DNA of 64,000 bases from Amoebophrya sp. A120 (taxonomy: Eukaryota; Protista; Dinoflagellata), in contig CAJINV010000007.1 of NCBI GenBank assembly GCA_905178155.1, positions 686,859 to 750,858 on the forward strand, read 5' to 3'. The notes under the pieces are model-generated. The model was not told the origin of the DNA. It did not search any database and worked only from the letters and a program-made list of their open reading frames with translations. Shown here one piece after another: positions 14,601 through 50,700 of the stretch. The position numbers and the translations under genes are program-made. Positions within the stretch are counted from its first letter, which is position 1, and every line of letters starts with the position of its first letter.

Positions 14601-16054
14601 AAAATTCCTGGACGTGCAAGTCTTTCGGATTCCGGTGAAAAAGTTTCTCCGGGTGCCGGAGTTTTTGAGCACTGGAACAAGTCCGGGCGAGGAGGAGGAC
14701 ATCACAAGCAGTGAGGACAAGGTCGAAGAAGGCGGAGGTGAACGACAATGTCAAGGTACGGCGCAACCATTCCAATTCCAATATTCATCCGAGCAATCGG
14801 AATCGTCGGGATCCACATATAGTACTTCTGACGATGACAGTGACACAGATGGTGTCAGGAAGAGAACATCACGTCTTGTTCAGCCGAGAAGAAAGTCCTC
14901 ACGAAGCCGGCGCTCTGCTGGTGCGCAGGAGGACCGAGAGCGAGGGACGACAGCTTCCCGTCAAAGAAGTACAACTACGCGCGGGGGTCGTTCTAGTCTC
15001 AGAAGCGCCTCTTCTGCCGCCTCCGGAAAGGGAACAAGTACAAGAACGAACACGCGGCGCAGAATAAAAGACGACAGAGTCGAGTATTTGATTAGCATTT
15101 CATCTGTCGTGGACGATAAAATAAATCGAGACGGAGATGAGGACTCGTCCAGTGAAGACGCGTCCGGTTGTTCGGGGACGTCGGCTTCTTCCGGTGCTGG
15201 AACGCCGCCGCGATGCAGCGCTATTGTATCGCCACAACAAAAAATCTTGGTGCAGCAAACAAGAAAGAGCTGGCTGCGGGCGGAGGTGTTCTTTCAGAAG
15301 CACAATTTTTATGCCTCGGACGGAGAAGATACAGCGGCCCAGTCTTCCCAGATGATGAGGCAGTGCAGATTCTATATCAAATGCAAAAATGTGGTTTTCA
15401 CCCCGTTGTTCACGTCTGTTCTATATCAAATGCAAAAATCCCTGGATGTCTGGAAGAATCCAACTTGTCATGCTGATTTTGGATTCTAAAAAAATCTGTA
15501 TTGCGTGAGCAGTAAAGAGAGTCCAAGGATGCTACACGGAAAGAGCACTTGTCATGCGGTATAGGCATCAGGAAGCCCTCACAAAATCTGTGATGCTAGG
15601 GCATGCATCACAGACATCAGGAGTCATGCAAAATGTGCATGACAAACCTGGCAATCTTCCAGACCCAGACATTTTTGCATTTGATATTCTGGAAACCACC
15701 CAACCGAGACAGAAGACCGGAAGATCTTCCTCCTCCTCGTCAAGCGGATCTTTATCCAGGAAAAAAGTGTGTAAGTGTAACTTTGTTGAAGGAATAGCAT
15801 CACAAGTTTGCTCATCTGCATGACACAGAAAACCTGTCATGCGTAGCTAGTACGTGAAAACACGTACGAAAAGAGCCTCTGGCGCATGTCCAGCATGACA
15901 AGTGTAGGCGTTTTGCATCCTCTGCAACACAAATTTACACTTACACAGTTTTTTTCTTGCATAATCTTCAGGTTCAAGTTACTCTTCCACGGATCCAGCA
16001 GCTGGATCCTGTTCTAGTGGGAGTGATGAAAGTCAAAGTGGGTCGGATGATTGA
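11658..16054 (+). CDS. Hypothetical Ser-rich protein (~1200 aa), 3 introners; paralogue-like C-terminus to the gene at 5360
   Basis: ORFs 11658 and 12433 join in frame (..SRADAQSRAWRIRAMKR..). The frame continues past elements 15424 and 15753 to TGA 16052-16054. Start codon uncertain. Confidence 0.75.
12133..12395. mobile_element. Introner, family A
   Basis: TIR; DR AGCAG. Confidence 0.92.
15424..15686. mobile_element. Introner, family A
   Basis: TIR; DR TTCTA/TTCTG. Confidence 0.88.
15753..15963. mobile_element. Introner, family G
   Basis: TIR TATCCAGGAAAAAAGTGTGTAAGTGTAA; DR ATCTT. Confidence 0.9.
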
Positions 16055-18797: not shown

Positions 18798-21700
18798 ATG
18801 AAGGATTTATCCACAGTACTTGTTTCCCCGCACACGACAAGAAAAAAATGTGGTTTCTGCATGACAAAACTTGCTTTCAATCCTGCTTAGCATGACGGGT
18901 AGCGCACGCGTCCACGAAAGCGAGATTTGTCTATGCATGTTGTAGTAGGCACGTGTACGTGCGTGGGAGATTTGTATTGCATAGGATTGGGTAGTTGGTC
19001 CGCACGGTTGGAACGACAACCGGCTGTGGGACGCGCTGTATGAAAACGGGAACATTGTAAAGCTCGACCCCAATGTATCCCAGTGCACAACTCCCCCTCG
19101 TTCTCATTTCTCATGCAAAATACCAATTCCACGCTTTCCCTCCTGTCACTATTGTGCATGACAAATTCTGGTAGCCCAAACAGAACTACTACACTCCAGT
19201 GCAAATTTGTCATGCAAAACCCGCAGTCTTGCTGATCCTGATGCTTCTATTTTTGCCGTGCATGCTACACGAATGGGGGGGAGGGGGAGTTGGGCACTAT
19301 CATACAATGGCCTGCCGGACGAGGATGGAAAGCCGATCGGTCACATATTGCGAGGAAAAATCCCCCCTCCCCATATAATTGAAAACGCAACGCCTGAAAA
19401 TTTGTGATGCAGATTTGTGACCACAAATCCTGTCCGTCTTGCAAGAAGACAAACGCAGAGAGTCCGTCCCATGATGCTGGCAGTTTGTGATGCTGTTGCG
19501 CTTACAGCGTAGACGGTTTTCATGCTAGGCGCCTACGGCAAATCCTCTCGACTCAGGCTTAGCATATAGCTGCAGTCCCCCACTGCAAGACAAGTCTGAT
19601 TTGTGTACTGAGATCCAGCGTCAGCAGTTTCGTTTGGATATTGGTCGGGGACGTTTTTACATAGGATAGCACACGACGCACAACATGTTTGTCAAGTGCA
19701 AAAAAACGAAGGAAATGTACCTGATTACCGTTCGCCAGAAATCAAAAATCGATCTGAAGAGCTTCGTATCAAATGCAAATAAGTATGTGAAGATGTAGGT
19801 CCGGATCAGTGCTGGAACCGTTTGTTATGCTGATTTTCCATGCCTTTGGGTTTGGCTTTGCCTGCTCGCGATGGATCGCGAACAAATCTCTGATGCAGGG
19901 TAAACGTAAGTAGTTCCTGTAAGGCCTTCGCAATGTGGCTAGAAGTTGCCTTTCGTGCATGAGAAACAGCCTCTCTGTGTGATCAAAAGCGGCGCGCTTT
20001 TTTTGGTACGTGGTATGCAACACAAATTTTATTTGTGTGACTTGCACCAGCATGCAATTGCATCATCACAAGTGTGCAAGAACCTTGATGACTTTCCAGA
20101 CACAGACATACCTATAATTTGCATTTCATACTGCGCGGTGGCGCTGGGTGCGAAGGAACTCCGGCTCTGCAAAGATAGGGAGGTACAGCGTAATTATATG
20201 ACTATAATACGGCTTTTTTTCTCGCAAATACGATTCGGATTTGTACTATTTGATTCAATTTCAATTCATTTCTTGTTGTGTGTGGAACAAGAACAGGAAG
20301 GATGTGATCAAAATAGTACAACCCAAGTGAAGAACGCAAATGACACACAGGACTACTTGGGCTCAACCCGCGGATGCATTACAGCGTTGGCACTGTTTTA
20401 CTATCGCAAGAAAAATGAACTGCCTGTTCATTGTAGTGACAGACCTTGTGATGCAGAAACTACCGCACACGCACACACACACAAGTCTTTGATGTCCTGT
20501 TTTTAGAAAGCTGCCAAGATAACCGGTGGGATCTTTAAGTAGTACAGCCGTGTCTTCATCCCATGGAAAGCACGCATGGCAGGTTCGTTAATATTTCGCT
20601 GTCATGGTAAAGTAACAAACAACTTGTGATGCAGATCCTGCATCAAAATCGTCACAGTGTTGAGCAAACAGTTTTCTCATGGGATATCTACGACGAGGGC
20701 TGGAATGTGAAATGGGTATCGCAAGAAAAAAACTGTGTAAGTAAGTATAAATCTGCAATGCAGAACACGCAACAGAGTTATGCCTGTCATGCCAGACAGC
20801 CACGAAGTTCTCTTTTCCTGTGTAATTTCCCTTACAAGCCACGCATGACAGGTTTTCTCTGTCATGTAGAGCAAATTTGTGATGCTGTTAGCCAAACATA
20901 GTTACACTAACACAGTTTTTTTCTTGCATAATGGGTGGTAGAGACCGAATATCCAGTGCAAACATGTCTATGGGTCTGGAAAGTTGTCATGCTAAAGATC
21001 GTTCTTTATGTTGGTCAACAAACATGACAAACATGCATCCTTCAACACCCAGACAACAGATTTGCAATTCATACCGAACTGATGGCCATGCCGGAATGGG
21101 TTTTGTGTGCCGGCTGTCAGGTATGAGAGTGCACAACTCCCCCTCATTTGTATGGCATGAGCAGCAATACAAACAGCAGCAAACGCGGAGCCCATGCATG
21201 ACAAATTTATGTGCCTGATATAGTACTGTTTGGGCTTCCGGATGAATTTGTCATGCAAACAGTGCCACAGGGCAGCGACTGGATTTGGGGTTTTGCATGA
21301 CAAATGACGGGGGGGAGTTGTGCGCTGTCATATCAGGACCCGCTCCAGCACGACCAGCACAATCTAACCACGGTCCGTACGGTGTTCTCAAATGTGACAT
21401 TCTCAACTGTATAGTAGTAGTAGTAGTGATTCCCAGCAAGGGGAGAGAAGGGGGCGCCATCTCTCACCTCACTAGCTTTTCACCACTTTTTTCATTGCGC
21501 GTTTGGGTTTGGGCTGGTGATTTGCTCTCTTCTCCTTCGGTTTGCATGCTCCCTCATGCGCAGCCATCTTGCTAATTCGCAAGGACTCACTATGGTCATG
21601 GGGACGCTCCACCCGATTGTCGTGATTGAACAGAATCTTGTACGTTTTGCATTTCCTGCATCGTAAAAACTCGCAGCCCGCTCGGTTCGTGAAAAGTGCA

Positions 21701-24700
21701 TCGCGAGGTAGAACGTTACGCCAACCCTTCGCATCAGATCCAAAGTAATACCGACCCGTCCAGTGGTTCCATAGGTGTTGCTCCGGTCGGTAGTCTCCTG
21801 TTGCTCTGCCCTGTGCGTCTTTTTTCCTGCCTGTCCTGATGTATCCATTCTGCCTGTGGACCTGCGCGTGCTTTTCCATGGCCCCCGCAGTGGAGGCGTA
21901 CATAAGTTCGCACGATTTACAGAAAATTTTTTTGATATGCGCCGCCGGCCCCCTAGCCATTTTGTCGCGTAGGATGTCGCTGTTTCTCTCGATGATCTCA
22001 CACCGTATCTCCTGGTCTTGCTCATTACTTATTTGCTCTGCCTTTTTCATAACTAACGCCTTGACATCCGTGTTGGTCGACTTTTTCACCGGATGCTCTT
22101 GCTGCATGTGAGCTATCATTTCCACCGATGGCCCGCCGTCCGTTGTTCCCCACGAAGCCGCCTGCGGATAGTTCTGCGCGCACCACATGCACTGGCGCTG
22201 GGCGTCAAAATGCTCAAGGGCCGACGGCTGTCCTGTCGGGAGCGCGTGCACTACATCGCCCTCACGTACGTCCGGGTCTTGTTCCTGCGCGGCCTTGATT
22301 GCTTCTGCACGCGTTGGCGTCTGCCCTGGGTTGCCGAAATACTTGATGGCCAGATCATCCGTTATCTTCTGTCGTAGGTCCGCGTCCCCATTGCTCCAGT
22401 CTTCAGCTGTTTCCCGGATAAAACACTGCCGCGTCATTGCATGGAAAAGTCGCTTGTTGGCCGCATAGAGCGCGGAGCCACTCGGTAACTCTTCAGGCTG
22501 CCGCGCTTGTGTTGCCTCCAGGTCCTCGGTGAGAAGCTGCACCATTTCCAGCGGCATTTTGCATTTTTTTGTCAAATGTTCTAGGGCGTCCTGGAGGAAG
22601 GACTCTACCCGCCGCTCTTTTGCGTCGACTTCTTTGAGCTCCTTGACTGATCGCAGAACTTCTGCTCTGGCCCGAAGACCGTCTTCCAGCGCGTTGCCCG
22701 CACTAGCGCCCCGGTATAAAATCGGCACAAACTTGCCCACGAGTGCGCGTCTGGCTAAATCGGTCGGCTTCCGTCGTAATACGTGTCCCACAAATCGCAT
22801 CTGTAGATACTTCAAGTGCACTCCGAACGGCGGGACTTTCAACTTGCGCCGAAGATCGGCCGCGCTTTTCTTCTGCAGCACACGCTCCCACCAAGGAATG
22901 TCTTGAATCCTCTGCATCATCGCAATCTCCTCCCGCTCGAGGGCTCGAACTTCGTCTGGACTCACGTACCTTGCCGCCAGGCCGTACAAGAATATGCTTC
23001 GGATCATAATGATGATTAGCTCGCCACGCCGCTCTGCAAAAAGATTCGAAACGCCGCTCATCTTCGCCCGTAACTTGTTGTAGGCAGTCCAAGCCTTTCG
23101 CTTTTTTTGTCGAATGTCTTCTCGGGGGTCCGTGTAGCTTCCAAGATTTCTTACCGACATGTCACAGATGTTGCCGCTAAAACGCTTCGCGTCGTTTTCC
23201 CGACACCCTGACTCCCGCAGTGCCTTTGTCAGTAGCTTCATGGCCTTCGACTCAGATGGAGCAAGCTTTTTCCCGATTAGCTCCGCATTGATTTTCAAGA
23301 ACTGCTGCAACTCCTCCTCGGTCATGTGTTCCAGCAGCGTCGTGTCATCAGCAAACAACAGGTCCATCACGTGGTCGATACTCAGCTCCGGCTCGCCTTC
23401 TTCTGGCTTCTCGCCCCCGGTTATCTCATGCAGCTGATCGGTTCTCTTCATGTGTCCCAAGTCGGCACGAGAGTACAACCGCACCCCTTTCAGGGATTCT
23501 GAGCCCTCCTGCCTGCGTAGTAGTCTGTGATATTTCATTACTGCCGTGCAACTAATCAAGAAGACGAGGGGGCTGCTCACACATCCTTCCTTCGTTCCAT
23601 TTTCCAGCGTGAATCGGTTTCCCGGCTTCTTGGTTTCTGGGTCGTAGAACTCGTGCTTGGCATGCCTATGGCTACTGTTTATCACACTCCAGCACGTTGC
23701 TTCTCCTATTCCCAAGGTGTCCATTACCGCCGTCACTAATCTCCAGTCCAGACTTGGGAACGCTTTTTTCAGGTCCACCAACGTCGCCAGCAGTCTGCTT
23801 GATTTGTGTCGCGAATAATGAGACAGGTCTTCCTTCATTCGGTTCCAAATCATAATGCTTTCGAGCGTGCCGCGATTTGCCCGAAACCCAAACTGGGTCT
23901 CGCAAAAGTATTGCTTGTCCTCCAGAACCTTGTAGAGCCGATCGCTGTAAATTTTTGTACATAATTTCAACAAGCACGGCGACACTACGAGAATACATGA
24001 ATTTGTAATGCAAGAATGGCAAGATGAGAAGAGTGAAAGGGGGACGAAGGTTGATGCGCCTTTTGCATTACAGGTTTGGAGCAGATTAAAGTGCTATCTA
24101 GCGCGTCGAGAACTTGTCATGCGGAGAAGGTTTGAAATTGTGAGAAGTGATTGCGTTTTTGCATGACAAATCATGTAACAGTTGAGAATGTAACGTTTGA
24201 GAGCCCCATAGTCCGCACCCTTGTCCCGGGGGATAAGGGGAAGTTGAAAAGTATCATCCCCTGGCATTGGGAACACAGGATTGAAGTGGAGGGATGGTAC
24301 GATTTCACCTTGATCAGATTTTCTTTTATTCGTTTTCGTGTTGATCTCGATCTTGATTTTGAAGCTCTGTATGTTTCCGTAGTTTTGTGTCCTCACAATA
24401 TATTTATAAATTCAAGTGTCAAGAAGAACAAGGACAAGCCACATCCGACCATCAACCGACCGCAGATCATGTCACGATACTGCAACCATAGCAAACTCAT
24501 CACGACAGCAATACCGGCGGGATTTTGGCAATAAAGTTCGATGGTACCAAGGCGAAAAAGGACTCTCCTGTACACAATATTAAAGTTGTGGCGTCGAAAA
24601 AGGTGGACGAACAAATGCCCGGCCAACAGAACAAAGAGGAGTTGTCAACATCAACGACTAGTAGGAAAGGCACGACACAAGCAGTGGAACAACCCGGGAA

Positions 24701-25350
24701 CAACAAGCCAGCGGCTCAAGCGAATATCAAATGCAAAAGTGTCTGGGTCTGGAAAGTTGGAACTTGTGATGCTAACTTTGGACTCTAAAAAGATCTGTAT
24801 TGCATGAGTAGCAAAGGGAATGTAATTTTTGCTACGCGGATAGAGCATTTCTCATGCGAAATAGGCATCAAGAACCCCTCGAAAAATCTGGGATGCTACG
24901 ACATGCATCACAGACATCATGGCTCGTGCAAAACGTGCATGACAAGTCTCAGAATCTCCCAGACCCAGACATTTTTGCATTTGATAGCCAAGAAACAGCA
25001 GCAATTTGCCGAGGACCATTTGTTCACTCGCCGCGATTATGAACTGAAGAAGTATCGTCGCACTAGTAGTAGTTCGTTGTACTTGCAATACAAATTAGCT
25101 TAGCATGGCGAATGAAGCTTGTCATGGTGATTCAACTCGGGAAGAAATTTTGTTTTGCATGACTGCAATTAGAAGTACGAGCAAGTCGAAGATACTTTTT
25201 CAATGCATAGCGATAGTAGCGAAACGATTTACGCGAGTGCATTTGAGCGGTACGAGCAGCGGCAGGGCGGGGTGGTAAACTCGGCGCTGAAGGGGGCGTA
25301 GGGGAGGTCCTGCAAATTTGCTGAGGAACAGGAACACATATAGTGGTTGA
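18798..25350 (+). CDS. YbaK/ProX/PrdX-like aminoacyl-tRNA editing domain protein; 11 introners plus GT-AG introns 20183-20350 and probably 24297-24508
   Basis: Rebuilt peptide MKDWVVG..HTTHNMFVKCKKTKEMYLITVRQKSKIDLKSFAVALGAKELRLCKDREDYLGSTRGCITALALFYD..VKWVVE resembles PrdX motifs (KNLFLKDKK..VDLK..LG..LRFA..LG..G.VT). Invisible in the ORF track because the exons are tiny. Confidence 0.7.
18808..18983. mobile_element. Introner, family H
   Basis: TATCCACAGTA..TTGTATTGCATA; DR GGATT. Confidence 0.8.
19076..19304. mobile_element. Introner, family E
   Basis: TIR ..AGTGCACAACTCCCCCTC; DR CAATG. Confidence 0.88.
19346..19668. mobile_element. Introner, family B body with D-like right end
   Basis: DR TCACA/GCACA. 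Confidence 0.82.
19767..20130. mobile_element. Introner, family A (degenerate)
   Basis: TATCAAATGCAAAT..ATTTGCATTTCATA; DR CTTCG/CTGCG. Confidence 0.8.
20402..20686. mobile_element. Introner, G-like (degenerate)
   Basis: DR TTTAC/TCTAC; frame restored. Confidence 0.65.
20717..20930. mobile_element. Introner, family G
   Basis: TIR; DR ATGGG. Confidence 0.9.
20950..21073. mobile_element. Introner, family A (short)
   Basis: Degenerate TIR; DR CCGAA. Confidence 0.82.
21122..21332. mobile_element. Introner, family E
   Basis: TIR; DR TCAGG. Confidence 0.9.
21412..23993 (-). mobile_element. 5'-truncated non-LTR retrotransposon (LINE) nested inside a family F introner
   Basis: The RT ORF starts abruptly in RT motif 1. 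A (CTA)5 tail lies at 21412-21426. The flanks rejoin as family F sequence (ctcaactgt|tacatg), matching the reverse complement of the 31038 element. Confidence 0.85.
21472..23985 (-). CDS. Reverse transcriptase (non-LTR type, N-terminally truncated) with C-terminal Cys/His fingers
   Basis: KLCTKIYSDRL, QFGFR, VDLKKAFPSL, GTKEGCVSSP, LFADD, NLGS. CxxC..H motifs follow (CMWC, CKSC, CRKC). 837 codons with no stop and no introners. Confidence 0.92.
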   Translation of the reverse strand: MSPCLLKLCTKIYSDRLYKVLEDKQYFCETQFGFRANRGTLESIMIWNRMKEDLSHYSRHKSSRLLATLVDLKKAFPSLDWRLVTAVMDTLGIGEATCWSVINSSHRHAKHEFYDPETKKPGNRFTLENGTKEGCVSSPLVFLISCTAVMKYHRLLRRQEGSESLKGVRLYSRADLGHMKRTDQLHEITGGEKPEEGEPELSIDHVMDLLFADDTTLLEHMTEEELQQFLKINAELIGKKLAPSESKAMKLLTKALRESGCRENDAKRFSGNICDMSVRNLGSYTDPREDIRQKKRKAWTAYNKLRAKMSGVSNLFAERRGELIIIMIRSIFLYGLAARYVSPDEVRALEREEIAMMQRIQDIPWWERVLQKKSAADLRRKLKVPPFGVHLKYLQMRFVGHVLRRKPTDLARRALVGKFVPILYRGASAGNALEDGLRARAEVLRSVKELKEVDAKERRVESFLQDALEHLTKKCKMPLEMVQLLTEDLEATQARQPEELPSGSALYAANKRLFHAMTRQCFIRETAEDWSNGDADLRQKITDDLAIKYFGNPGQTPTRAEAIKAAQEQDPDVREGDVVHALPTGQPSALEHFDAQRQCMWCAQNYPQAASWGTTDGGPSVEMIAHMQQEHPVKKSTNTDVKALVMKKAEQISNEQDQEIRCEIIERNSDILRDKMARGPAAHIKKIFCKSCELMYASTAGAMEKHAQVHRQNGYIRTGRKKDAQGRATGDYRPEQHLWNHWTGRYYFGSDAKGWRNVLPRDALFTNRAGCEFLRCRKCKTYKILFNHDNRVERPHDHSESLRISKMAAHEGACKPKEKRANHQPKPKRAMKKVVKS
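24725..24986. mobile_element. Introner, family A
   Basis: TIR; DR GCGAA/GCCAA. Confidence 0.9.
25038..25209. mobile_element. Introner, family C
   Basis: TIR; DR GCGAT. Confidence 0.85.
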
Positions 25351-27014
25351 CAGCGTGGCGCAATTATCTCAACAACCGATTTAGCTATTGCAGTTTTATT
25401 TCCAAGAATAAAGCAGCAAAATCCTTTACGCGCAGCATAAGCAATCTGGCCTTTCTAGTTGTCGCTTTGCACTTGAAAGTACCACGTAGCTACTATGGAG
25501 TTTTGCTTTCGTGCTGCTATTTTTCGCACTGAAGTACTTACTTATTTTCCTTTTCGTACCAAACAGAAACACTTCTTTGCTGACGCAGTCGGTCATTCAC
25601 ATTCTGGCGGCTTCGCAGGCAGTTCTTGTTCCGCAGATTTTGGTACTAATTCTAGCGCATGAAGTGCCACATCAAGATGAATCTCCTTATCAAGAACTTG
25701 AACTTTGAAATAAATAGCTTGGTCACAGTCACATTTAGACAAAACAACAGAACGCAGACATGCAGCAACCTCATTTTTTTTGCCGAGATGTATCTACTTC
25801 GTGTGCTACTTCTGTCTCTGTGTCAACATCGTGTGTTCCACCCTCGGACCACAGAGCTTGTTGATGTTGCTGAGCGAGAAAGCAGAAAATCTTTGAGAAG
25901 TAGTCGCACTATTGAAGCACAACGCAAACGCCAGACCCAGAAAAACTGACTGAGAGTCTTGCTTTCTCTACTTGGGATCTTCGAGATGGATATTTTGCAA
26001 AATCGCATTAGTTACACACGATGAAGATGAACCCGATGGACGGGCCCATCGATCTTCCACTTATTTGTCACTCAATCTCTTGCCACCTGCTTGTGATTTT
26101 GCTAAAGGTAGTACAGGACAGTTGTCAAGAACCCGATGGATCATCATCATATGTAGCGACGCCACAGCTGATCTCAATTTATTAACTTAGCCGTGATATG
26201 AATTATCGTGGCAGAAACGAAATAAACGATGGAAATCATACTTCTGAAAAATGCAGGATGGCCAGGCAGTGGCTGCACCCACTAGCTACTGAGAATCGAA
26301 GAAGCTCCTGCGGTATCTTCGTCTTCCCTGCCACACTGCTGCATCTGCCCGCTAGCCTGGGTGCTTAGAAGACTTTGCAGGTGAGACTACTCAGGTGGTC
26401 GTAGAAGTGTCGACAGCCTGCGAAAATCCACGAAGATCCAACCACGTTCGTTGTTTTCGTCTTTTTCTCTCAGCAACGCGTAAGAGGAGACACTACAACT
26501 TGGCCAGCTATGGCGACTGTTGCAGGTATTGTCACACTTGATGATCAATTGCTTGCCTGTATGGAGCGGCCCATGTTGTCATGCAAAAAGAACTGTATGA
26601 AGATGAACAAGCCTTATAGTTATATATACGAAGCCCATTCTTGATTTGTCCGACACCCAATTTGAATTTTCTTGTTCAGGCACTACGTGTCGAGTTTTTA
26701 GTCCTCTGCGTTTTTACTCTAGTTAGAAAGATTCACAGTAGAAATTAGTTTTTTTTAGTTGTACGCACGCATTTATTTCGCTTGTATACCTCATTCTGAT
26801 GGCGTTGTCACCTCGCTCAAAGCAACGAGGGCTTTGCTCCGCCCGGATGAAGAGGCGTACAAATTGTCAAACAAATATTTATTCGCCATCTGTACTGATC
26901 TGTTTTTTTTGATACAGTTCTACCCTCGCGTTGGTCCTCGCCGACGCATACTAAGATAGTTCTGCTGTACCCATCTCTAGTACTTGTACCCGCATTTATT
27001 TTGCGGCAGACAAG

Positions 27015-30000
27015 ATGACAGTCCTCTCCCCGGAAATCTACCTAGACAGCGACAACGACCTTGTTCTCCCCTACAACAATAGCGACAAAAACAACAACAA
27101 CCCAGCGCAACAACCACAACCCGGCGCGGCTTCCAAAGCCCCGAGAGGTCTCCAGAAGGTGAAGCCGAAAGAGGGCGCGCCGAAGGATGACTTATCAACT
27201 GCAAACATGTCTGGGTCTGGAAGAATGGAACTTGTGATGCTGTCTTTGGATTCTGAAAAAATTTGTATTGCATGACCAGCAACAGCAGTCCACTTTGTGC
27301 TACTTACACAGAGAGGGCGTTTCCCATGCGGAAAAGGCATCAGAAAGGGTTCTAAAAATCTGAGATGGTAGGGCATGCATCACAGACAATCGTGGGTCGT
27401 GCCAAATATGCATGACAAACCTGGCAATCAATCTTCCAGACCCAGACATATTTGCATTTGATATGACTGGCAGAAGTACCAGAAGCTGTCTCTGCACGAG
27501 CACATTTTACTCCGGGGCGACAGTTATCAAATGCAAATATTCCTGGATGTCTGGAAGATTGCGAGACTTGTCATGCCAGTCTGGCATGTCTCTGCACTCT
27601 GTATTGCGTGGCCACCAAGAGGTCCTGCTCTTGCCTGTCATGCAAAAGCGCAGTTCCTCATGCGGAATGCGCTTCACAGAATCACGAAAAAACTTGTCAT
27701 GCTTGGCGGCGCCGCATTACAGAGCACTTATTGTTCACGGAGTTGCGTCACAAGTTTCCAGATCCAGACATATTTGCATTTGATAACAGTTACGTCGGGA
27801 GTTGCGAGCCGGAAGATGGGGACTTCTGGGTCGTTTCGGAAACCGACGCGACCAAGATGGAGAAGCGAACGCTGAAGTACGCCCCGGGTCTGTTTTATCA
27901 AATGCAAATATGCCTGGGTCTGGAAGACAGGAGTAACTTGTGATGCTAAGTCTACACCCTGTGAAAATCTGTGTTGCATGACTGCCAACAGTTGTCCACT
28001 TTTGACCAAGTTGCGAGGGAGTTTCTCATGCAGGACAGGCATGATAGAGATCTCACAGAATCTGTCGCGCCAGGTCCTGCATTTCAGACCTCATGGGTCA
28101 TGGAAAATCTGCATGACAAGCTTCCACGCTTCCAGACCCAGACATATTTGCATTTGATATGTTCAAGATCTTCGACGAGATTCTGGTCAACGCCGCGGAT
28201 AACTTGCAGCGGGATGATAGTATGAGCACTATCCGGGTAAAGATCTCTTCCCAAGAGATCTCCGTCGAGAACGACGGTCAGGTATCAAAGTGAAAAATCC
28301 CCCCTCCCCATATTGAAGCGGAAACTTCTGTTGCTGGATTTGGGTACACAAATCAGCCCTGTCTTGCAGTGAGGCACTACACCAGGCAAAGCCGCAGCCT
28401 GCGTGGGGGTGTTTTGCTGTAGGCGCTTAGCATAACAGAGGCCTGCCATGTAGGTGAAACAGCATTACAAAGCGCCTCCATAAGGCGGCGGATTCTCTGG
28501 GGTTGCCTTCTTGCAAGAGAGACAGGATTTGTGGTCACAAATCAGCATCACAAACGTAACGTTTCAATATTTATGGTGAGGGAGGATTTTTCTTCGCAAT
28601 ATCAGGGGGTGAGGATAGCTCCGCACCAGAAGGAAACCGAAAAAACTGCCGACGGGAAGCACGAACAAAAAATCATGATCCCAACGATGATTTTCGGTTC
28701 CTTGCTATGCAGTGCAAAAGTATCGTACTCGTATAAAATGCATTACAAATTTCCGCAGCATGAGAAATTAAATTTGTAATGCGGACGATTTACCTTGTAA
28801 TACAATACGAGTGCGATACTTTTGCACAGGATACTTGCTCGCCGGTGACAACTTCAACGACAACAAGAAGCGGTGCGCGGGGGGACGGAACGGATACGGG
28901 GCGAAGCTAGCGAACGTGTACTCGATATCCTCTGCAAAAACATCACCACCCCAGAGTTTTCATGCGGATTTGCAATTGTAGGAACATTTGTAATGCGCAT
29001 CCCCATGAGAGGCATTTCCAGTCGTGTTTCGGAATTTCTGATGCTGTAAACAGGATAAGCAGATGGCCCTGTGATGCGGCTGCACTTTCCAGACTGCACT
29101 ACAATGCAGAGAGGAACTTGTCATGCGTGACTCCCAAAGCTTCTGGATTTGTGTTGCGAGATCCCCATGATCTTGACTCCGGGGTGGGGACGTTTTTACA
29201 CAGAATACTCGACCATGTTCCGAGTGGAAACGGTGGATAAGAAGGGACAGGATCGGCTCGGAAAACCGGTGAAATACTTCTCCCAAGAGTGGACCCGGAA
29301 CATGTTTGATAAACAGGAACCAATCCTGTTGCCCGAAGTCCCGGAGGCGGCGTCAAAAAATTCCGGGCTGAAGCAATTCACCCGGGTGACGTTCCGGCCC
29401 GATATGAGTAAGTTCCAGTCTAAAGCGAAAAGTGCAAATGCGAGTAACCCGTTGGAGTTGAAGAAGGAACAACTTCTTCTAGAGGACAACAAACAGCTCG
29501 AAATGGACGCCGACATCCTCGCCCTGATGACGAGAAGAGTCTACGACTTGGCCGCCTGCACCCCACCGCACGTCGCGGTTTTTTTGAACGACAAGGAGTT
29601 GCCGATTAGAACTTTCAAGGACTACGTCGGGATGTTCGACGCGCAATTTTATGACAATGCACAACTCTCTCTCTCCCTCAGCATTTGTATGGGATGAACA
29701 GCAGTACAAACACCAGCACACGTAGAGCCTATGCATGCCAAATTTGTGCACCTGATCATGTAGTACTGTTTGGGCTTGAGCTTGTTTCGCATTTGTCATG
29801 CAAACAGTGCCACAAGGCAGCGACTGGATTTGGGATTTTGCATGACAACATTGACAAATGAGGGGGAGTGGGAGTTGTGCACTGTCATAAATTTTCCACC
29901 AGCACCAAAACACAACTCAGCAATGTGAAGAAGGAAGAGGTGGAAAAAATAGATGAAAGCGGTGGAATGAATAACGCAAACAACAAAATCATCTCCGACG

Positions 30001-33000
30001 AAGATGATTCTCAAAATAACTCTAGAGAAGATTCTCTCTCCGAGCAGCACAAGAACCTGATCAAGGCCACCATTGTCGACCCAGAGGAGTGCGATCACGA
30101 TCCAACCAAGGTTCGCCCCTCGAAAAGATGGGAGGTGTACATCGGGATGAGTGAAAAAACGCAGTTTCAGCACGTTTCCTTTGCGAATTGCATCGCGACC
30201 ACGAAGGGCGGAACCCACGTGTCGCACGTGGAAGCGCCGTTGGTGGAACGGATTTGGGAGAAAGCTAGGGATAGTTACGACGGGAAGTTTAAGATCACGA
30301 GGCCGCACATCAAAAACCACTTGTTTCTGTTCATCAACGCGTATGTGGAAAATCCTACCTTTAACTCGCAAACGAAAGAAGACATGACGAGCTTGCCGAA
30401 GGACTTCGGGTCGAAATGTGTCTTGTCGGAAGAAACGGTCCAAGCGGTTTTGAACTGCGGGATTGTAGACACGATTGTGAAGTGGGCGAATGCGAAGCAA
30501 CAGGCGGAATTGGCGAAAAGGTACAACTTCGATACCAGTTGGACTTACCTAGTAGAGTGTTGTTCATGCAAATGAAATGCATTTCCACAAATCGCCAACT
30601 GTGACCGTAATCCAATCGAATTCTGCACACGAAAGAACCATACATAAAGATGAAAAACCATTACTTAAATTTCTATCAGGGCCAAGATCTCCAGCAAGTC
30701 TTTAACGAAGCTGATCATCCCGAAGCTCGTATGAAATGTAAAAATGTCTTGGTCTGGAAGACTGCATGTTTGTCATGCTTGTCTGGCATGACTCTTAAAT
30801 CTGTCATGCACGTTACCCAAGAGCTCCATTTTTCTGTGATCCAGAAACGCAGTTTGTCATGCAGAATAGGCAAGAACACCTAGAAGCTCAGAAACTTGCC
30901 ATGCTGAGCCAGCACTTGTGGCCTCATCATGAGACGCCACCCAGCATCACAAGTTTCCAGACCCAGACATTTTTACATTTGATAGCTCGAGGACGCGAAC
31001 CATGCGGGAACCGCCGCTGCAATGGACTGCACGTTGATATGGCGTTCTCAAATCGGTTACCTTCTTAACTGTTAGTACACGATTTCTCTTCATGCAAACT
31101 TACAACCAGAATCGACGCGATCAAGCTGCATCGCATGACAAATGCTCGAAAAGGAGCGAAACAGGCTAAGAATCTGCGCCAAGTCTGTCATGCAAGACGC
31201 GCAAGGTCACCCATTTCACTTTTGCCATTCTTGCATCACAAATCCATGTAACAGGTGAGAATGTAACAGTTGAGAGCGCCATAGTCGATCCTAACAGAGG
31301 GAGATTCCGCGAAAGCCACCGCAATGGCGGGTCTCGGCGTGGTCGGCCGGGACTACTACGGTGTGTTCCCCCTCCGCGGAAAAGTCTTAAACGTCCGGAA
31401 CGCGAACCCGGCGCAGGTGACGAACAACAAGGAAATCGTGAATTTGTGTAAAATTCTCGGGCTGGAGATCCCGTCCACCGCGTTATCCGGGAAGAACTTG
31501 GCCTTGGAGGACAGGATAAAGGAAGAGGAGCTCATGGAGTCCCAAGTCGAGGTGCTGAAGAAAAAGATGCGGTACGGCTCGGTCACCATCATGACGGATC
31601 AGGATTACGATGGCTCGCACATCAAGGGGCTGCTATTGAATTTACTGCAGTACTACTGGCCAAGTTTAATTCGTCACGAGCCGCAGTTCGTTCGGGAATT
31701 CGTGACGCCGATCGTGAAAGTCACGAAAAAGAAGGAAACGATCGTGTTTTTCACCGTAGCGGAGTACGAAGCTTGGAAGGAGAACACGCCGGCGGAGGAA
31801 CGGAAAAGGTGGAAGGCCAAATACTACAAAGGTACAGACGTTTCTTTTGACTGACTTTTTCATGCGCTCAGAGTGTCGCTTCTTGTGGTTGTGCCTGTTA
31901 TGGACAGAAGCAGAACTGCATGTTGACGAGTACTTACTAGTAGAGAAAAACTACAAAAAGGCTAAGCCACAAAATCTTCTATATTTATTATCCCCCAGGT
32001 CTCGGAACCTCCACCGGAAAAGAAGCAAAGCAGTACTTCGAAAAGTTGGATCGTCACTCCCTGGCTTTCAAGTACGAGAACGATCATGATGACGACAATC
32101 TCTCGATGGCGTTCGACCAAAAACGCGCGGACGACCGGAAAGAATGGATCCGGAATTTGAATGCGGATGAGTACATCGATCACAACGAATCGGAACTCAC
32201 GATCACGGAATTTATCAAGAAGGAGCTCGTCTTCATGGCCGAATACGACGTGATGCGGTCCATTCCGAACGTGATGGACGGGTTTAAGCCCACGCAGAGG
32301 AAAATTCTCTACTGTGCCTTCAAGAAGAAACTGAAGAGCGACATCAAGGTACAGTATTTTTACCCGTACAGCAACTCCAACTCCTTTGGCGGCATGCTTC
32401 ATTTTGTCGTGTTTTGTCATGCACAATCTCAAAGAGGTACGTTGCTTGTCATGCTGCAAGGCGAGGACGACGAACAAATCGATCAGGTCGCGCAACTCGC
32501 GGGGTATGTTTCCGAGAAGGCAGCTTACCATCATGGTGAAGTCTCCTTAGAAGGCGCGATCGTCGGCATGGCGCAGGACTTCGTCGGCTCGAATAACGTG
32601 AAATTACTCGTCCCCAGCGGGCAATTCGGAACGCGAATTGAAGGTGGAAAGGATCACGCTGCGAGCAGGTACGGGAAATCTGTATTGGAATTTCGAAACA
32701 GTAGTAAGTACTATGCGTAGGTACTGAAGAAGCGACAAGAGGCACGTTGACAAATCTAGATCTGAGTATAGAATTTTCGCATGAGATGAAACTAGAACTA
32801 TTACAACATCCAGAGAAACAAGTAAAGCACTCTCTGCTCGTAATATTCAATCTTCAGGTACATCTACACCCGGCTGAACAACCCCCTGACCCGCGCGATT
32901 TTTCTATGAAATGTAAAAATGTCTGGGTCTGGAAACTTGTAATGCTGCGTTGGGAATGGTGAATGCTCTGTAATGCACAGGCAAGCATGAGAAATATCTG

Positions 33001-36000
33001 CGCTTCTTTGTGTTGCGTTTTTCGCATGACAAACTGCGTTTTTGCATGACAGGCAAAAGGGTCTCTTCTTGGACACGCATCACAAACTTTCTGGTCATGC
33101 CAGAAAAGCATGACAAATCTCAAAATCTTCCAGACCCAGACATTTTTGCATTTGATATTTTCACCCCGATGACGACAAAATTCTCGAGTACAACCAGGAG
33201 GAGGGAAAGTATCAAATGCACATACGTCTGGGTCTGGAAACTTGTGATACTGGGTGGCGATCATGATTGAACATACTCCTGAGTGCGACCAAGCATGACA
33301 AATTTTGCGGAAACTTTCTCATGCGTAGTGTGCATGAGAAACTGCGCTTCTGCATGACAAAGGAAGGCTCCTTTTCCTGGTCATGCAATACAGATTTTAC
33401 AGGAATCCAAGTCACGCAATACAGGTTCCACTCTTCCAGGCCCAGAAACTTTTGCATTTGATAGGAAGTGGATTGAACCCAAACTTTTCTGCCCGGTCAT
33501 CCCGATGGTGCTAGTCAACGGCGCGGAGGGTATCGGGACCGGTTGGTCGACCTCCATCCCGAATTACGACCCCAGAGACGTGGTGGAGAACTGCCGCATC
33601 TTCATCAAGCGACACTTATTGAACACGAAGCACAAACGATCGAAATCGAAGCAGCAGAGTGTCGTGGAAAACGAGAACGGGGACGTGATAATGGTGGATG
33701 ACGATGATGATGATAAGGATGCTATCCTAAGTAAAAACGTCTCCACCCCATAGTCAAGTTGGGAACTTTGCAACACAAATCCACCAGTTTTGCGACTCAC
33801 GCATGACAAACTTTCCCCTGTATTGTAGAGCGGGTTAGCAAGGAAAGCTGCATCACAAATCCATCTCTTGATCTTGTTTACAGCATTACAAATGCCAAAA
33901 CACGACCGAAAGTGCCTCTTATGGGGTTGCGCATGGCAATTGTTTCTGTTATTGCGAATCTGCATGACAACTCTGGGGTGGGGAGGGTTTTAAACAGGAT
34001 AGATGCCGAGCAACAGAATGCGAATCTTCCGAATTACATCGAGATGAAGCCGTGGTTCCGGAATTTTCGCGGGGAAGTGCGGGGGAAGTCGGGCGCGAAG
34101 AATTTCACTACGGAAGGGTGCGTGTCGGTCACAGTCCACGAAGATGGATCGAGCACGGTGGAGATCACGGAACTTCCGATCAGAGTGTGGTATGCATTGC
34201 AAAAGAATCGTACAACTTTACTACGTGGTAATTGCATTTACAAATTAGCCCAGCATGACGACAAGTCAGTGGAATTTGTCATGCAGATTCACCTTGGGAA
34301 GGGGGTTTGTAATGCGTGACTGCGATTACATTTAATTTACTACCAGTGCGATACTTTTACAATCCATATGTGGACGCAGGCTTACAAGGAGAAGTTGCTG
34401 AAAATGATCAGCGACGACAAGCATGGAATCCGGGATTTTAGAGAGTATCGAAAAATGTCTGAATTTTTGGTGATGTAGTTTCCTGTCACGCATAATTATA
34501 TTGGAGAAAAACTATCTCTATCGCGATGAAGTTGATTCGAAAAACCATCGCGAGTGCCGCAGCCGAGCATCCTTGGTTTCAGGGTTTTAGGATTTAGGGT
34601 CTCTGCTCCCGACTTCGCTGTGCCGCATCGAGCTGCACCACGGAGTAAGTAAGTAGTTGTTTCGCAATGAAAAGACAAATAAAAGCCTCGTCCTAAATCA
34701 CAGGCACCACACCGATGTCACCGTCCACTTCTCCATCGACTTGACCGAGCCGGGGCAAGTGCAGGCCGAGGCTGCGGGTTACATGAAGTACTTCGGTCTG
34801 TCCTCCTCACTCGCTACCAGCAACATGATGGGTTTCAACAAGGAGCACAAGATCTACAAGTACGACAGCCCCCTCGACATCGTGAAGGAATTCTGCGGAT
34901 TCCGGGTGGAATTTTATCAAAAACGGAAGAAATACTTGCTCGACAAATTAAAACAGTCCGAATGCGAACTGGAAAACCAGCGCAGGTTCGTGTTAGCCGT
35001 GGTGAAACGGGAGCTGATTGTCCGGAAGCGGAAAATTGCGGACATTTTACAAGACTTGCGAGCCATGAACTTCGTGACAAAGTCGGTTTTGAACTCTATG
35101 GCGGCGAGATCCGAGCGGGAGGAGGAGGAAAACGCGGAAAAGGATGAAGAAAACGAAGATAACGACAACGACGGCGACAATAACGACCCTGGTTCCGACG
35201 ACGAGGCGAATGAGGACGATGAAAATAATCGGGCCAGTAACAACGCGGCAAACAATGCGAGGAAAGAGTACGACTACTTGCTCGGCATGCCGCTGTCCTC
35301 CCTGACCACCGATAAGGTGAAGGAACTCGAGCAGACGTACAAGGGAAAAGTAGCGGAAAGGGAAATCCTCGAGAAGAAATCCGTCGCGGATCTGTGGCTC
35401 GCGGATTTGGACGATATGCATTGCACAAAATATATCTGGGTCTGGAAGATTGCCAGATTTGTCATGCTTGTCTGACATAGCTCGGAACTCTGTCATGCGT
35501 AGGTGCAAAAAGATCGCTTTGTCTGTGATGCAAAAGCGCAGTCTGCCATACGGAATACGCTACACGTAGCAGGAGCCCAAAAACTTGTCATGCTTGGCCA
35601 CGTATGACAGTGTGCCCAGTATCTATTCCCTGGCTTGCATCACAAGTTTCCAGACCCAGACATACTTGCAATGCATAGACGAGATCATGGTGCAATTGGA
35701 CGCCGAAGACGCTTTTTACGACGCGGAATTGGCGGAAGCGCGGAAACAGCAAGAAAAGGCAATGGGGTTCAAAATCGGCGGTGCGGCTGGGGATAATAAA
35801 TCGAAGATGGCCAAGAAATTGAAGAAGAACAAAGAAGGAGGTGGAACATTAAATAATGCAGGAGATCATGACGACAACAACGACGCTCCCGGTGAGGACA
35901 AGAAGCCGAAGGCGCCGAAGATGAAAAGGAAAATTAAGGAAGAAGGTGCGGAAGGTGCTGCAAACGACCAGGACCCGGACCTAGCTGGTGCTGGCCCCGC

Positions 36001-47779: not shown

Positions 47780-50700
47780 ATGGCCTGTTTTGGTGGAGGC
47801 AAGCTGAAAAAGGAGCGCGATGCCTTGGCGCAGCAAAAGCAGGACCTCGAGGCCAAGGTCGCGCAGCAGCAGGCCGAGGCACAGCAACTGAGGCAGAAGC
47901 TGCAGCAGGTTCTTATTTACATTCTTGTTTCACGAATGATTTTATGAACTGCAAAAGTATCGTACTCCTACTCGTATAAATGCATTACAAATTTCCTCAG
48001 CATGAGAAATCAAATTTGCAATGCGGATTTACCGTAAAAAAAAGATTTGTAATGCAAGACTTGCATTTAATTATCCAAAAGGCGGAGACCCAAGCCAAAA
48101 CCGCGAAGACAACCGCTGACGAAGAGAAGGGGCAGCGGGAAAACGTTATGCATTGCAAATATATCTGGGTCTGGAAACTTGTAATGCTGAATGGCCATGA
48201 TTCACCGTGCCTTTCAGTGCAGTGCAGCATGACAAATTTTTCAAACGCTCTGTCCTGCGCAGGACGCATTACAAAGTGCGTTTTTGCAACATGAGGAAAG
48301 CGTGGTGCTTCATTTGCTGCTATATGCAATACAGATTTTTTAGGAATGCGAAACACGCAATACAGGCGCAATCATTCCAGACCCAGACATATTTGCATTT
48401 GATAAACGTGCAGAATCAACTGAATAAGGAGTTGACGAAGCTGCAAAAAGACAAAGACAAGGTGGACAAGAGGATGAAGATTCTCCAGCAGGAATTCACG
48501 ATCCTGCAAATATCAAATGCAAAAGTGTCTGGGTCTGGGAGATTCTGAGACTTGTCATGCACGTTTTGCATGAGCCATGATTTCTGTAATGCATGCCGTA
48601 GCATCACAGATTTTTCGAGGGGTTCCTGATGCCTACTTCGCATGACAAATGCCCTATCCGCGTAGCAAAAATTACATTCCCTTTGCTACTCATGCAATGC
48701 AAATTTTTTTGGAATCCAAATGCAGCATCACAGGTTGCATTCTTCCAGACCCAGACATTTTTGCATTTGATAGCAAACCGAGGCGGACAAAACCATCCAG
48801 CAATACGCGATAGGGGATTTGTATGCTCTGCAAGAAAAGTATCGTAGTACTAATCGCATTCATGCATTACAAATCTGGTTCCATATTAGGCAAATCAGCA
48901 TGACAAATTCCATTTGTCATGCTGAGCGAATTTGTATTGCAATCACTACTAGCGCGATACTGTTCCAGTTCATAATTTGCGGAAGAAACCCTTTCTGCTC
49001 CTTTTCGAAGCCTACGACGGCGACAACGGGACCTTCCTGGGGGAGCAGCTTCTCATCGGAACGGGCGAGTTCGCGCTAATGGACCGCGCGGTGCACTCTC
49101 GCTACGACGTATGCAAGAAGAAAACTGTGGAAGTGTAACTCTGTAATGCAGAATATGGAAGAGAGTTACATCTGTCATGCCAGACAGCCATGAAGTCCTC
49201 GTTCCATGTCAGTGTTTTCCCTTACAAGCCGCGCATGACAGGTTTTTTCTATGATCATGTAGAGCAAATCTGTGATGCTGTCAGCCACAGAAAGTTACAC
49301 TAACACAGTTTTTTTCTTGGATACGACGCGAGTAAGGAACAAGCTTCCGCCAGCAAAAATCCGACGCGAAGGATACACGTGGTGTGTGAAGAGAGCAACG
49401 ACCATATCCAGGAGAAAAACTGTGTTAGCGTAGGTGCTTTGGTGGAGTGATAGCATGACAAATTGGCTCTGCGTGACTTCTGATCGAGCCTGTCATGTTG
49501 CACAACTAGTACGTGAAAAGGAAAACGCACATGGAAACAAGTGGACTGCATGGCTGTCTGGCATGACAAGTGTAGCTGTGTTGGTTTTTGCTGCATTACA
49601 GAATTACAATTCTTAGGCAGTTTCTTTCTTGCATAGACCAGCTCGCGGTCAGATCCCTGTACCAAGAAGGCGGATCCAGTAGCTCCACCGCGTTTTCGCC
49701 CCCCTTGGCCGGCGGGACGTCTGCGAGCAGTCCACCGCCCGGGACGAACAGCAACAAAGTCGACTACCATTCCGTGCTCTACAAGGTTTGGCTGAAGCGG
49801 GGCAAGATGACAGCAAAGAGTGGAGCAGCAGCGGGAGGTTCTGCTGGCACGGAGCAGCCATTAGATTCGGAGCAGGAGCAAGACGAGGGGAAAGAAAAGC
49901 CCGCTGTATGGGAGCAAGTGGCGATGGAGCACAGCGAGATATTAAATGCAAAAGTAACTATGACTGGGTTGGGAAATTCAAATTTGTGTTGTTGAAGCTG
50001 CTTTATTTACAGAGTGGCAACTTGTACAGCATAGCAGCATCAGGCTGTACTACTTTTGCAGATTCTTTCGTAATGAAACACACGACAGATCATGGCTGAG
50101 TTTCAACACAGGAGCATGACAAAACACCTTGCCAGTCGTATTTTATGCATCACAAAATCAAATACAAATCCTTCTTGTGCTTCTTCAGATATCATCTCAT
50201 TTTCGCAAATCCAGACCAAGATCAAAAATATTTGCAAAACAATGCATACGAGATCATACCAGGCGACTTGTTAGAAGATCCGAACCAATACGGCTGGGTA
50301 GCGGGGTATGGATGTGTCAGAATCGAAATCAACAAAATCGAAATCGCTTGTGATGCATAAAATCGATACCAGTTGGAGCCTCAGTTTCCAATTGGCGCAT
50401 GACAAATTTCGGCAGCACGAAAATCCAGTCTCTCATGCTGTTTGGGCAAAGAACGCTGCTCCTGTCGTGCTACTCTGGCAGCACATCGCCTCCCCCTAAA
50501 CAGGCTCGCAATCGGTCTTATTTGCCTCCTCCCCAACACAGGCCATACGTGCCCTACATTTTATGCATTGCAAATTTTTCGATTTTGTCGATTTCGATCC
50601 TGACACTCCCATACGGGGTTCAGCAATGGTCTGAGCACGGAGGAACCACTCATCTTAGACTACGAAGCGCTGAATCTCCACGGGTATAACACCGTGGAGC

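Follow-up and report, generated by a model that had tools for sequence, protein, structure and literature searches.

The locus

The stretch of DNA analysed here (the window) comprises 64,000 nt of the dinoflagellate Amoebophrya sp. A120 (contig CAJINV010000007.1, positions 686,859 to 750,858). It holds 37 introners, recognised by a TA...TA form, inverted ends and a perfect 5-nt direct repeat (DR), with a median length of 252 nt and a range of 124-374 nt. Another element with inverted ends, at 21378-24210, is 2,833 nt long. It lies in a ProXp-ala/PrdX-like gene and carries, on the minus strand, the reverse transcriptase (RT) open reading frame (ORF) of a long interspersed nuclear element (LINE). 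We consider it probable that this is a dead, 5'-truncated LINE nested in an introner of family F, and that the two are removed together as one non-canonical intron of 2,838 nt. The features of the locus, with positions in the window, are:

18985..25298, + strand: host gene, matched coding span, ProXp-ala/PrdX-like, 291 amino acids (aa; protein P0158)
21338..21377, + strand: host exon 5' of the element, 40 nt (splice model in agreement with P0158)
21373..21377, + strand: left DR GTCCG, seen in the sequence (introner target duplication, of which one copy is kept in the mRNA)
21378..21410, + strand: outer 33 nt, left inverted repeat of the introner (28/33 complementary to 24178-24210)
21411..23993, - strand: 5'-truncated copy of a retrotransposon without long terminal repeats (non-LTR; LINE), 2,583 nt, 53% GC
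21412..21426, - strand: (CTA)5 3' tail of the LINE, seen in the sequence (similar tail and 3' untranslated region, UTR, in a second copy, L001)
21472..23991, - strand: LINE ORF remnant, 839 codons and stop
23994..24210, + strand: rest of the 250-nt family-F introner (inner left-repeat remnant, body, right inverted repeat at 24178-24210)
24211..24215, + strand: right DR GTCCG
24216..24296, + strand: host exon 3' of the element, 81 nt (24211-24295 covered by X5 record 25, a transcript contig)
31038..31283, opposite orientation to the element: uninterrupted family-F copy, 246 nt, used for comparison, among topoisomerase II-like exons

The host gene and its spliced transcript

One host exon matches, at 100% identity, a public protein of 291 aa (P0158) that carries the label Amoebophrya sp. 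A120. From 19670 on, the gene is split by eight terminal inverted repeat (TIR) introners and two GT-AG introns (20183-20350 and 24297-24508). A splice model of 19670-25779, from which the eight introners, each with one DR, and both GT-AG introns are removed, yields 1,225 nt with a 248-aa frame that is identical to the last 248 residues of P0158. Removal of the 2,838 nt restores the plus-strand host frame, and retention leads to immediate stops. None of the six equivalent 2,838-nt cuts has GT-AG ends, and the nearest GT-AG cut, of 2,839 nt, shifts the frame. A splice model with different boundaries for the GT-AG introns was rejected (1,221 nt, broken frame); the visible GT and AG give 1,225 nt.

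Contigs of public sequencing runs (X1, X3 and X4 from one sample, S1; X5 from another, S2) provided the evidence on transcripts and copy number. X5 is probably an RNA run. Its record 25 is 1,225 nt long with a contig depth of 19, and its four listed pieces differ from the window at no position (19670-19764 maps to 1131-1225, 24211-24295 to 829-913, 24508-24722 to 614-828 and 25210-25779 to 1-570). The 217 nt between 19764 and 24211 in this contig are exactly the length given by the splice model. A 14-nt micro-exon at 20936-20949, between two introners of which one is degenerate (end duplex about -18 kcal/mol), is included both by the transcript length and by P0158.

The host protein has homology to PF04073 (the INS/tRNA_edit domain), and all four PDB matches of P0158 at E<=0.01 are Atu3699, PRORSD1 and ProXp-ala-type proteins; against NCBIfam, all matches lie far below the cut-offs. 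The gene is thus ProXp-ala/PrdX-like and its product a predicted trans-editing protein. It shares the PF04073 and PDB matches with ProXp-ala, PrdX and PRORSD1, but is divergent from them and has a long C-terminal extension, and its activity is predicted only. The host sequence at 19670-19690 reads THNMF where the solved ProXp-ala-type proteins read TKNLF, a motif whose Lys may matter for editing activity.

A LINE within the inverted repeat of an introner

Perfect GTCCG repeats at 21373-21377 and 24211-24215 enclose the element, whose outer 33 nt are complementary between the ends at 28 of 33 positions. Deletion of 21411-23993 in silico leaves an introner of 250 nt with ends that match at 34 of 39 positions, so the LINE splits the left inverted repeat behind its nt 33. 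Such a split is what a LINE arriving in a pre-existing introner would leave. The introner body (23994-24210) aligns with the 31038-31283 copy in reverse orientation (global score 170 reversed versus 82 in the same orientation; 175 identities, 57 mismatches and 30 gaps in the reversed alignment). These two family-F copies share their ends and are ~65-70% alike in the interior. The loose ends found in X1, X3 and X4 are of a similar type to the 31038 copy, and the LINE-bearing copy may represent a minor subfamily.

Much of this anatomy had been described in an earlier note made from the letters of this DNA alone, and most of that description stands: TIRs and a perfect GTCCG DR surround an antisense RT ORF (its 837 codons are the count from a GTG at 23985), removal of the whole element rejoins the PrdX-like frame, and both the (CTA)5 tail and a truncation inside RT motif 1 are seen. 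The note had placed the insertion ~34 nt inside the left end by comparison with the 31038 copy; the site does lie there, after nt 33 and within the inverted repeat, but that copy is oppositely oriented. Its target duplication of at most 2-3 bp is indeed tiny and is here refined to 0-2 nt, in the window copy and in L001 alike. A 3-nt duplication, ATA, is disfavoured by a unitig end at 24023 (see below).

The LINE fragment and its relatives

From stop to stop the minus-strand ORF is 873 aa long, of which 839 codons are LINE-derived, and its first in-frame Met is codon 47. It matches RVT_1 in Pfam (E=9e-14). The 5' truncation falls within RT motif 1, leaving LVVSP where relatives have YRFLVVSP or YRYLVISP; the FADD motif is intact, and C-terminal to the RT lie three Cys/His clusters that may bind zinc. 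Between the ORF stop and the LINE end lie 61 nt, with a short 3' UTR and the (CTA)5 tail. The C-terminal ~250 aa with the three clusters (21475-22230, minus strand) match no Pfam family, and the leads from an ESM Atlas search with the last 252 aa were weak, C2H2-like and below the recognition threshold. This region includes a block, RPEQH...GRY..GSDA, that is conserved with relatives. Both the endonuclease and the ORF's own start are absent from the remnant, domain scans found no transposase-like domain encoded, and self-comparison of the element region shows no terminal direct repeat of the LTR kind. The RT fragment is predicted to be a non-functional, dead passenger that would be unable to move the unit.

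The best PDB matches of the RT are to LINE-1 ORF2p, though weak (E 0.03-0.08), and it aligns with proteins that combine an apurinic/apyrimidinic endonuclease with RT (APE-RT). The best relative is an A120 protein (69%). A search of cluster-representative proteins with the LINE ORF gave 739 matches at E<=0.001, 33 of them at E<=1e-30. Relatives reach 150-1,440 residues further N-terminally than the window copy; since the longest close ones align only from their residue 599, 762 or 1443 onward, the ORF of the family is far longer at its N-terminus. Our own profile, built from eight distant APE-RT proteins, finds an endonuclease-like region in protein P0008 (E=7e-12 among 15 proteins; no match in P0001) and has none in the window copy. 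The earlier note had called for an RT phylogeny; in a quick tree built from 66 of the 157 proteins, those with rows spanning profile positions <=40 to >=380, the window RT falls in a nine-row group (SH-aLRT, the Shimodaira-Hasegawa-like approximate likelihood ratio test, 100) in which six of the eight other rows are labelled Amoebophrya. The grouping is thus with Amoebophrya proteins, in a tree with no reference rows from named clades (RTE, CR1, L2).

A second, independent LINE copy, L001, is 86% identical to the window copy over 581 nt and has its 3' UTR and tail type in common with it. Its 5' truncation lies elsewhere, near residue 673, and its flanks show neither a match to the window nor a TIR+DR element. 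The ratio of nonsynonymous to synonymous rates (dN/dS) between the two copies is 0.05 (160 codons), as expected if both descend from master elements under selection. The bases past the tail of L001 (2626-2644) are loosely like those past the window tail in BLAST, a stretch too short for a target motif. LINE relatives were found in 0 of 56 candidate stretches of genome contigs and in 1 of 62 of metagenome contigs, and the LINE 3' end has no match in viral contigs.

In a simulation of neutral decay (indel ratio 0.05), an ORF of 839 codons survived in 14% of cases at 1% divergence and in 2% at 2%. Because so long a frame rarely survives neutral decay, the insertion is likely young.

Junction and copy number in DNA contigs

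A contig of DNA run X1 covers 23731-24023, and with it the right LINE/introner junction, with 0 differences and at a depth of 22.5 (28-36 in flanking contigs), which is near the single-copy depth. It stops at 24023, 30 nt into the introner body. The X1 unitigs have k=31 per the tool description, and this end fits a junction at 23993|23994 because a 31-mer unitig should end there. Beyond 24210, 79 X1 contigs extend into unlike flanks (agreement 0.37), which makes the introner end a repeat present at many loci. The summed X1 depth along the LINE interior is 17-69. Paralogous LINE contigs, with depths of 20-33, are ~92% identical to the window copy (23 differences in 284 nt), a pattern of a few diverged LINE copies and no identical sibling. 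X3 and X4, low-depth runs of X1's sample, and X5 have no contigs over most of the LINE interior and are uninformative here. In another X1 contig (depth 45.8), eight letters separate LINE coordinate 21662 from an introner end of another family (20903); it is either a second short LINE copy in an introner end or a chance match to an introner-like motif.

End pairing and a proposed history

The duplex of the outer 33 nt has a free energy of -41.4 kcal/mol, and those of neighbouring introners range from -15 to -49. In the minimum free energy fold of 21363-24225, positions 21381-21410 pair with 24178-24207. With 55-nt ends the duplex reaches -66.7 kcal/mol without the LINE versus -43.5 with it.

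We infer the following history. A family-F introner would have entered the coding exon with a 5-nt duplication. A full-length LINE of the APE type, resident elsewhere, would later have copied itself into the introner by target-primed reverse transcription, the copying stopping inside RT motif 1 and leaving a duplication of 0-2 nt. The outer 33 bp of the hairpin would have been spared, the LINE forming a 2.6-kb bulge on its 5' arm, and in-frame mRNA would still have been made, so that the insertion was tolerated. Pairing of the outer 33-nt ends would juxtapose the two GTCCG repeats and the 2,838-nt intron would likely come out in one piece. Since a transcript of the gene lacks exactly this enlarged intron, Amoebophrya splicing at the locus likely depends on paired intron ends and not on intron length.

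Alternative explanations

Several points weigh against a nested LINE that is spliced out with its introner. The X1 junction contig has 30 introner-side letters, one below the bridging rule applied, the left LINE/introner junction is not among the X1 pieces listed, and contigs of the LINE interior have depths of 17-25 versus 28-36 in the flanks. X1 lacks the near-identical source copy that is usual for a very recent insertion, and Pfam calls an endonuclease in none of the eight close relatives scanned. The 21377>24216 joint is deduced from the coordinates of the X5 record rather than directly displayed, and the X5 contigs come from S2 while those of X1 come from S1, so that an allele without the LINE could yield the same transcript. 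P0158 and X5 were not counted as independent and may share RNA data, since transcript alignments were the basis of the A120 gene models (Farhat et al. 2021, PMC7789003). Several weakly paired neighbouring introners (-15 to -18 kcal/mol) are removed in the splice model as well, and strong pairing may therefore not be required.

The sample difference, the lower interior depth and the identical mRNA expected from a LINE-less allele would all suit a LINE allele that is spliced poorly or never, the transcript coming from cells with an empty 250-nt introner. We regard this as unlikely, because the junction contig is near single-copy depth and the depths of paralogous LINE contigs spread likewise, the X5 pieces differ from the window at 0 positions and, weakly, no 21410>23994 joint is among the 15 of 255 joints listed. 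Removal in two steps, with GT-AG sites within the LINE cut first and the shortened hairpin then excised non-canonically, is improbable. Canonical splicing is available in this gene, which has two GT-AG introns, and 2.6 kb of antisense LINE would give many chance sites; against that, efficient sites would have to occur by luck in a fresh insertion, the ends are closed as it is in the one-step fold, and no intermediate was seen, although the reads were not searched for one. That the assembly joined LINE and introner through repeats is very improbable: both parts are repetitive, no listed contig spans the whole element and X3 and X4 cover almost none of its interior, but an independent unitig set contains the right junction with 0 differences and the expected end, and the parts of the introner on either side of the LINE join with base precision.

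An open ORF enclosed by intact inverted ends and a perfect DR could also mark a composite, RT-bearing introner that moves as a unit, the alternative raised in the earlier note, and retroelement-like ORFs have been described in a TIR introner family of A120, family 38 (Gozashti et al. 2025, PMC12130899). This, too, has very little probability: the inverted repeat is broken by the LINE, the contigs of the junction and of the LINE interior are single-copy without identical siblings, and the ORF has no endonuclease, start or transposase-like domain. With L001 truncated elsewhere and free of introner flanks, and the junction at single-copy depth, the LINE is an ordinary insertion and not a composite mobile unit. 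The note's favoured reading, of a 5'-truncated and likely recent LINE in a pre-existing introner that is likely removed with it, holds up; its view that the LINE uses the introner as a safe haven, taken as a strategy, is not supported. We doubt that the lineage targets introner inverted repeats as hairpin or cruciform DNA. The window copy does sit in an inverted repeat, the X1 contig at 21662 may (unless by chance) show another family's introner end joined to the LINE, and the published table gives LINE-peptide or PF00078 matches for A120 TIR families 2, 6, 9 and 16 (PMC12130899). L001, however, lies outside any TIR+DR element, leaving one of two copies in an introner, and introners make up 17% of the genome assembly (PMC7789003), so that chance insertion with purging of exonic copies would suffice for an apparent enrichment. 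Similarly doubtful is the broader conjunction of a length-independent, one-step excision that reads the outer ~30-bp ends and the DR with an Amoebophrya-specific LINE that prefers introner inverted repeats, its nested copies defining the minimal signal.

Other introners of the window

Ends complementary at >=26 of 33 positions next to a perfect 5-nt DR occur in the window as 20 pairs at 80-500 nt and two at 0.5-6 kb, and in none of five base-shuffled windows. Of the two long pairs, the one other than the LINE-bearing element, at 30933-33261, was rejected as unrelated ends of two introners that pair inside out by chance. A further candidate for a long element, 47943-48974, was rejected because there, as at 30933-33261, separate introners pair across exons. 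At 15375-15686, two left ends of the commonest introner family lie 49 nt apart (15375 and 15424) with one right end, possibly a tandem or partial duplication. A type II topoisomerase gene at 29862-35475 (gyraseB, Toprim and topoisoIV domains) is interrupted by several introners, one of which is the 31038 family-F copy, with an imperfect DR.

Comparison with known systems

The A120 introners described by Farhat et al. (PMC7789003) share with the element inverted ends, a 5-nt boundary DR, a non-canonical cut, a body of ~250 nt and many copies; unlike them, it is 2.8 kb long and bears a LINE. That paper gives a TAT-N7-AAA end motif descriptively, which the ends of most window introners match. The family-F element has TAT-N9-AAA on the right and starts with TAC on the left, with nine rather than seven nt before the A run; N7 fits the other families of the window. 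The analysis in PMC7789003 covered introns of 40-1000 bp only. Supplementary file 8 of PMC12130899 lists TIR introner families of A120 with lengths of 0.8, 1.2 and 1.6 kb. Families 38, 103 and 86 resemble the element in being long (0.8-1.6 kb) and mostly non-canonical at the ends. Family 38, however, is multi-copy with Copia/Gypsy-like ORFs, whereas the window element is a single-copy nested non-LTR fragment. In the same table, the short TIR families 2, 6, 9 and 16, with their LINE or PF00078 matches, have very long alignments, which are probably nested insertions. The word 'nested' is absent from the main text and supplementary file 1 of PMC12130899 (files 13-14 lay outside the search). A LINE nested in an Amoebophrya introner was not described in the literature searched, which excludes subscription papers and the supplement of Farhat et al.

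Euglenid nonconventional introns (PMC11282704, PMC12501133) likewise have end pairing that unites non-canonical borders, and DR-like junctions; in Euglena, this pairing was demonstrated to be needed. They belong to an unrelated lineage and carry CAG/CTG motifs, but euglenid hairpin introns reach several thousand nt and so are a precedent for long hairpin-defined introns. The earlier note had stressed a length over ten times the usual one; the element is 11.2 times the window median, but this is less surprising with families of 0.8-1.6 kb published. Both kilobase-long introners of A120 and multi-kilobase hairpin introns of euglenids have been published before.

It is ordinary for introns to contain transposons. 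LINEs of the APE type that are 5'-truncated are found there in antisense, with a microsatellite 3' tail and little or no target duplication. The window copy shares the antisense intronic site, the 5' truncation, the simple-repeat tail and a target duplication of almost nothing, but its host intron is itself a transposon with ends that do not look spliceosomal.

Implications

The locus is of value as a natural test case for a splicing route that still lacks an explanation. How Amoebophrya, in which U1 small nuclear RNA was not detected according to PMC7789003, removes introns without GT-AG ends is an open question on which it bears. The locus amounts to a natural deletion scan, in which the left arm is cut to 33 nt, the inner hairpin is detached and the intron is 11 times longer, while the mRNA is apparently unchanged. 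If confirmed on one allele, this would confine the required signal to the outer ends and speak against a mechanism that measures length. It also counsels caution, as RT matches in TIR introners may be nested passengers, and this bears on introner families that have been classed as retrotransposon-derived.

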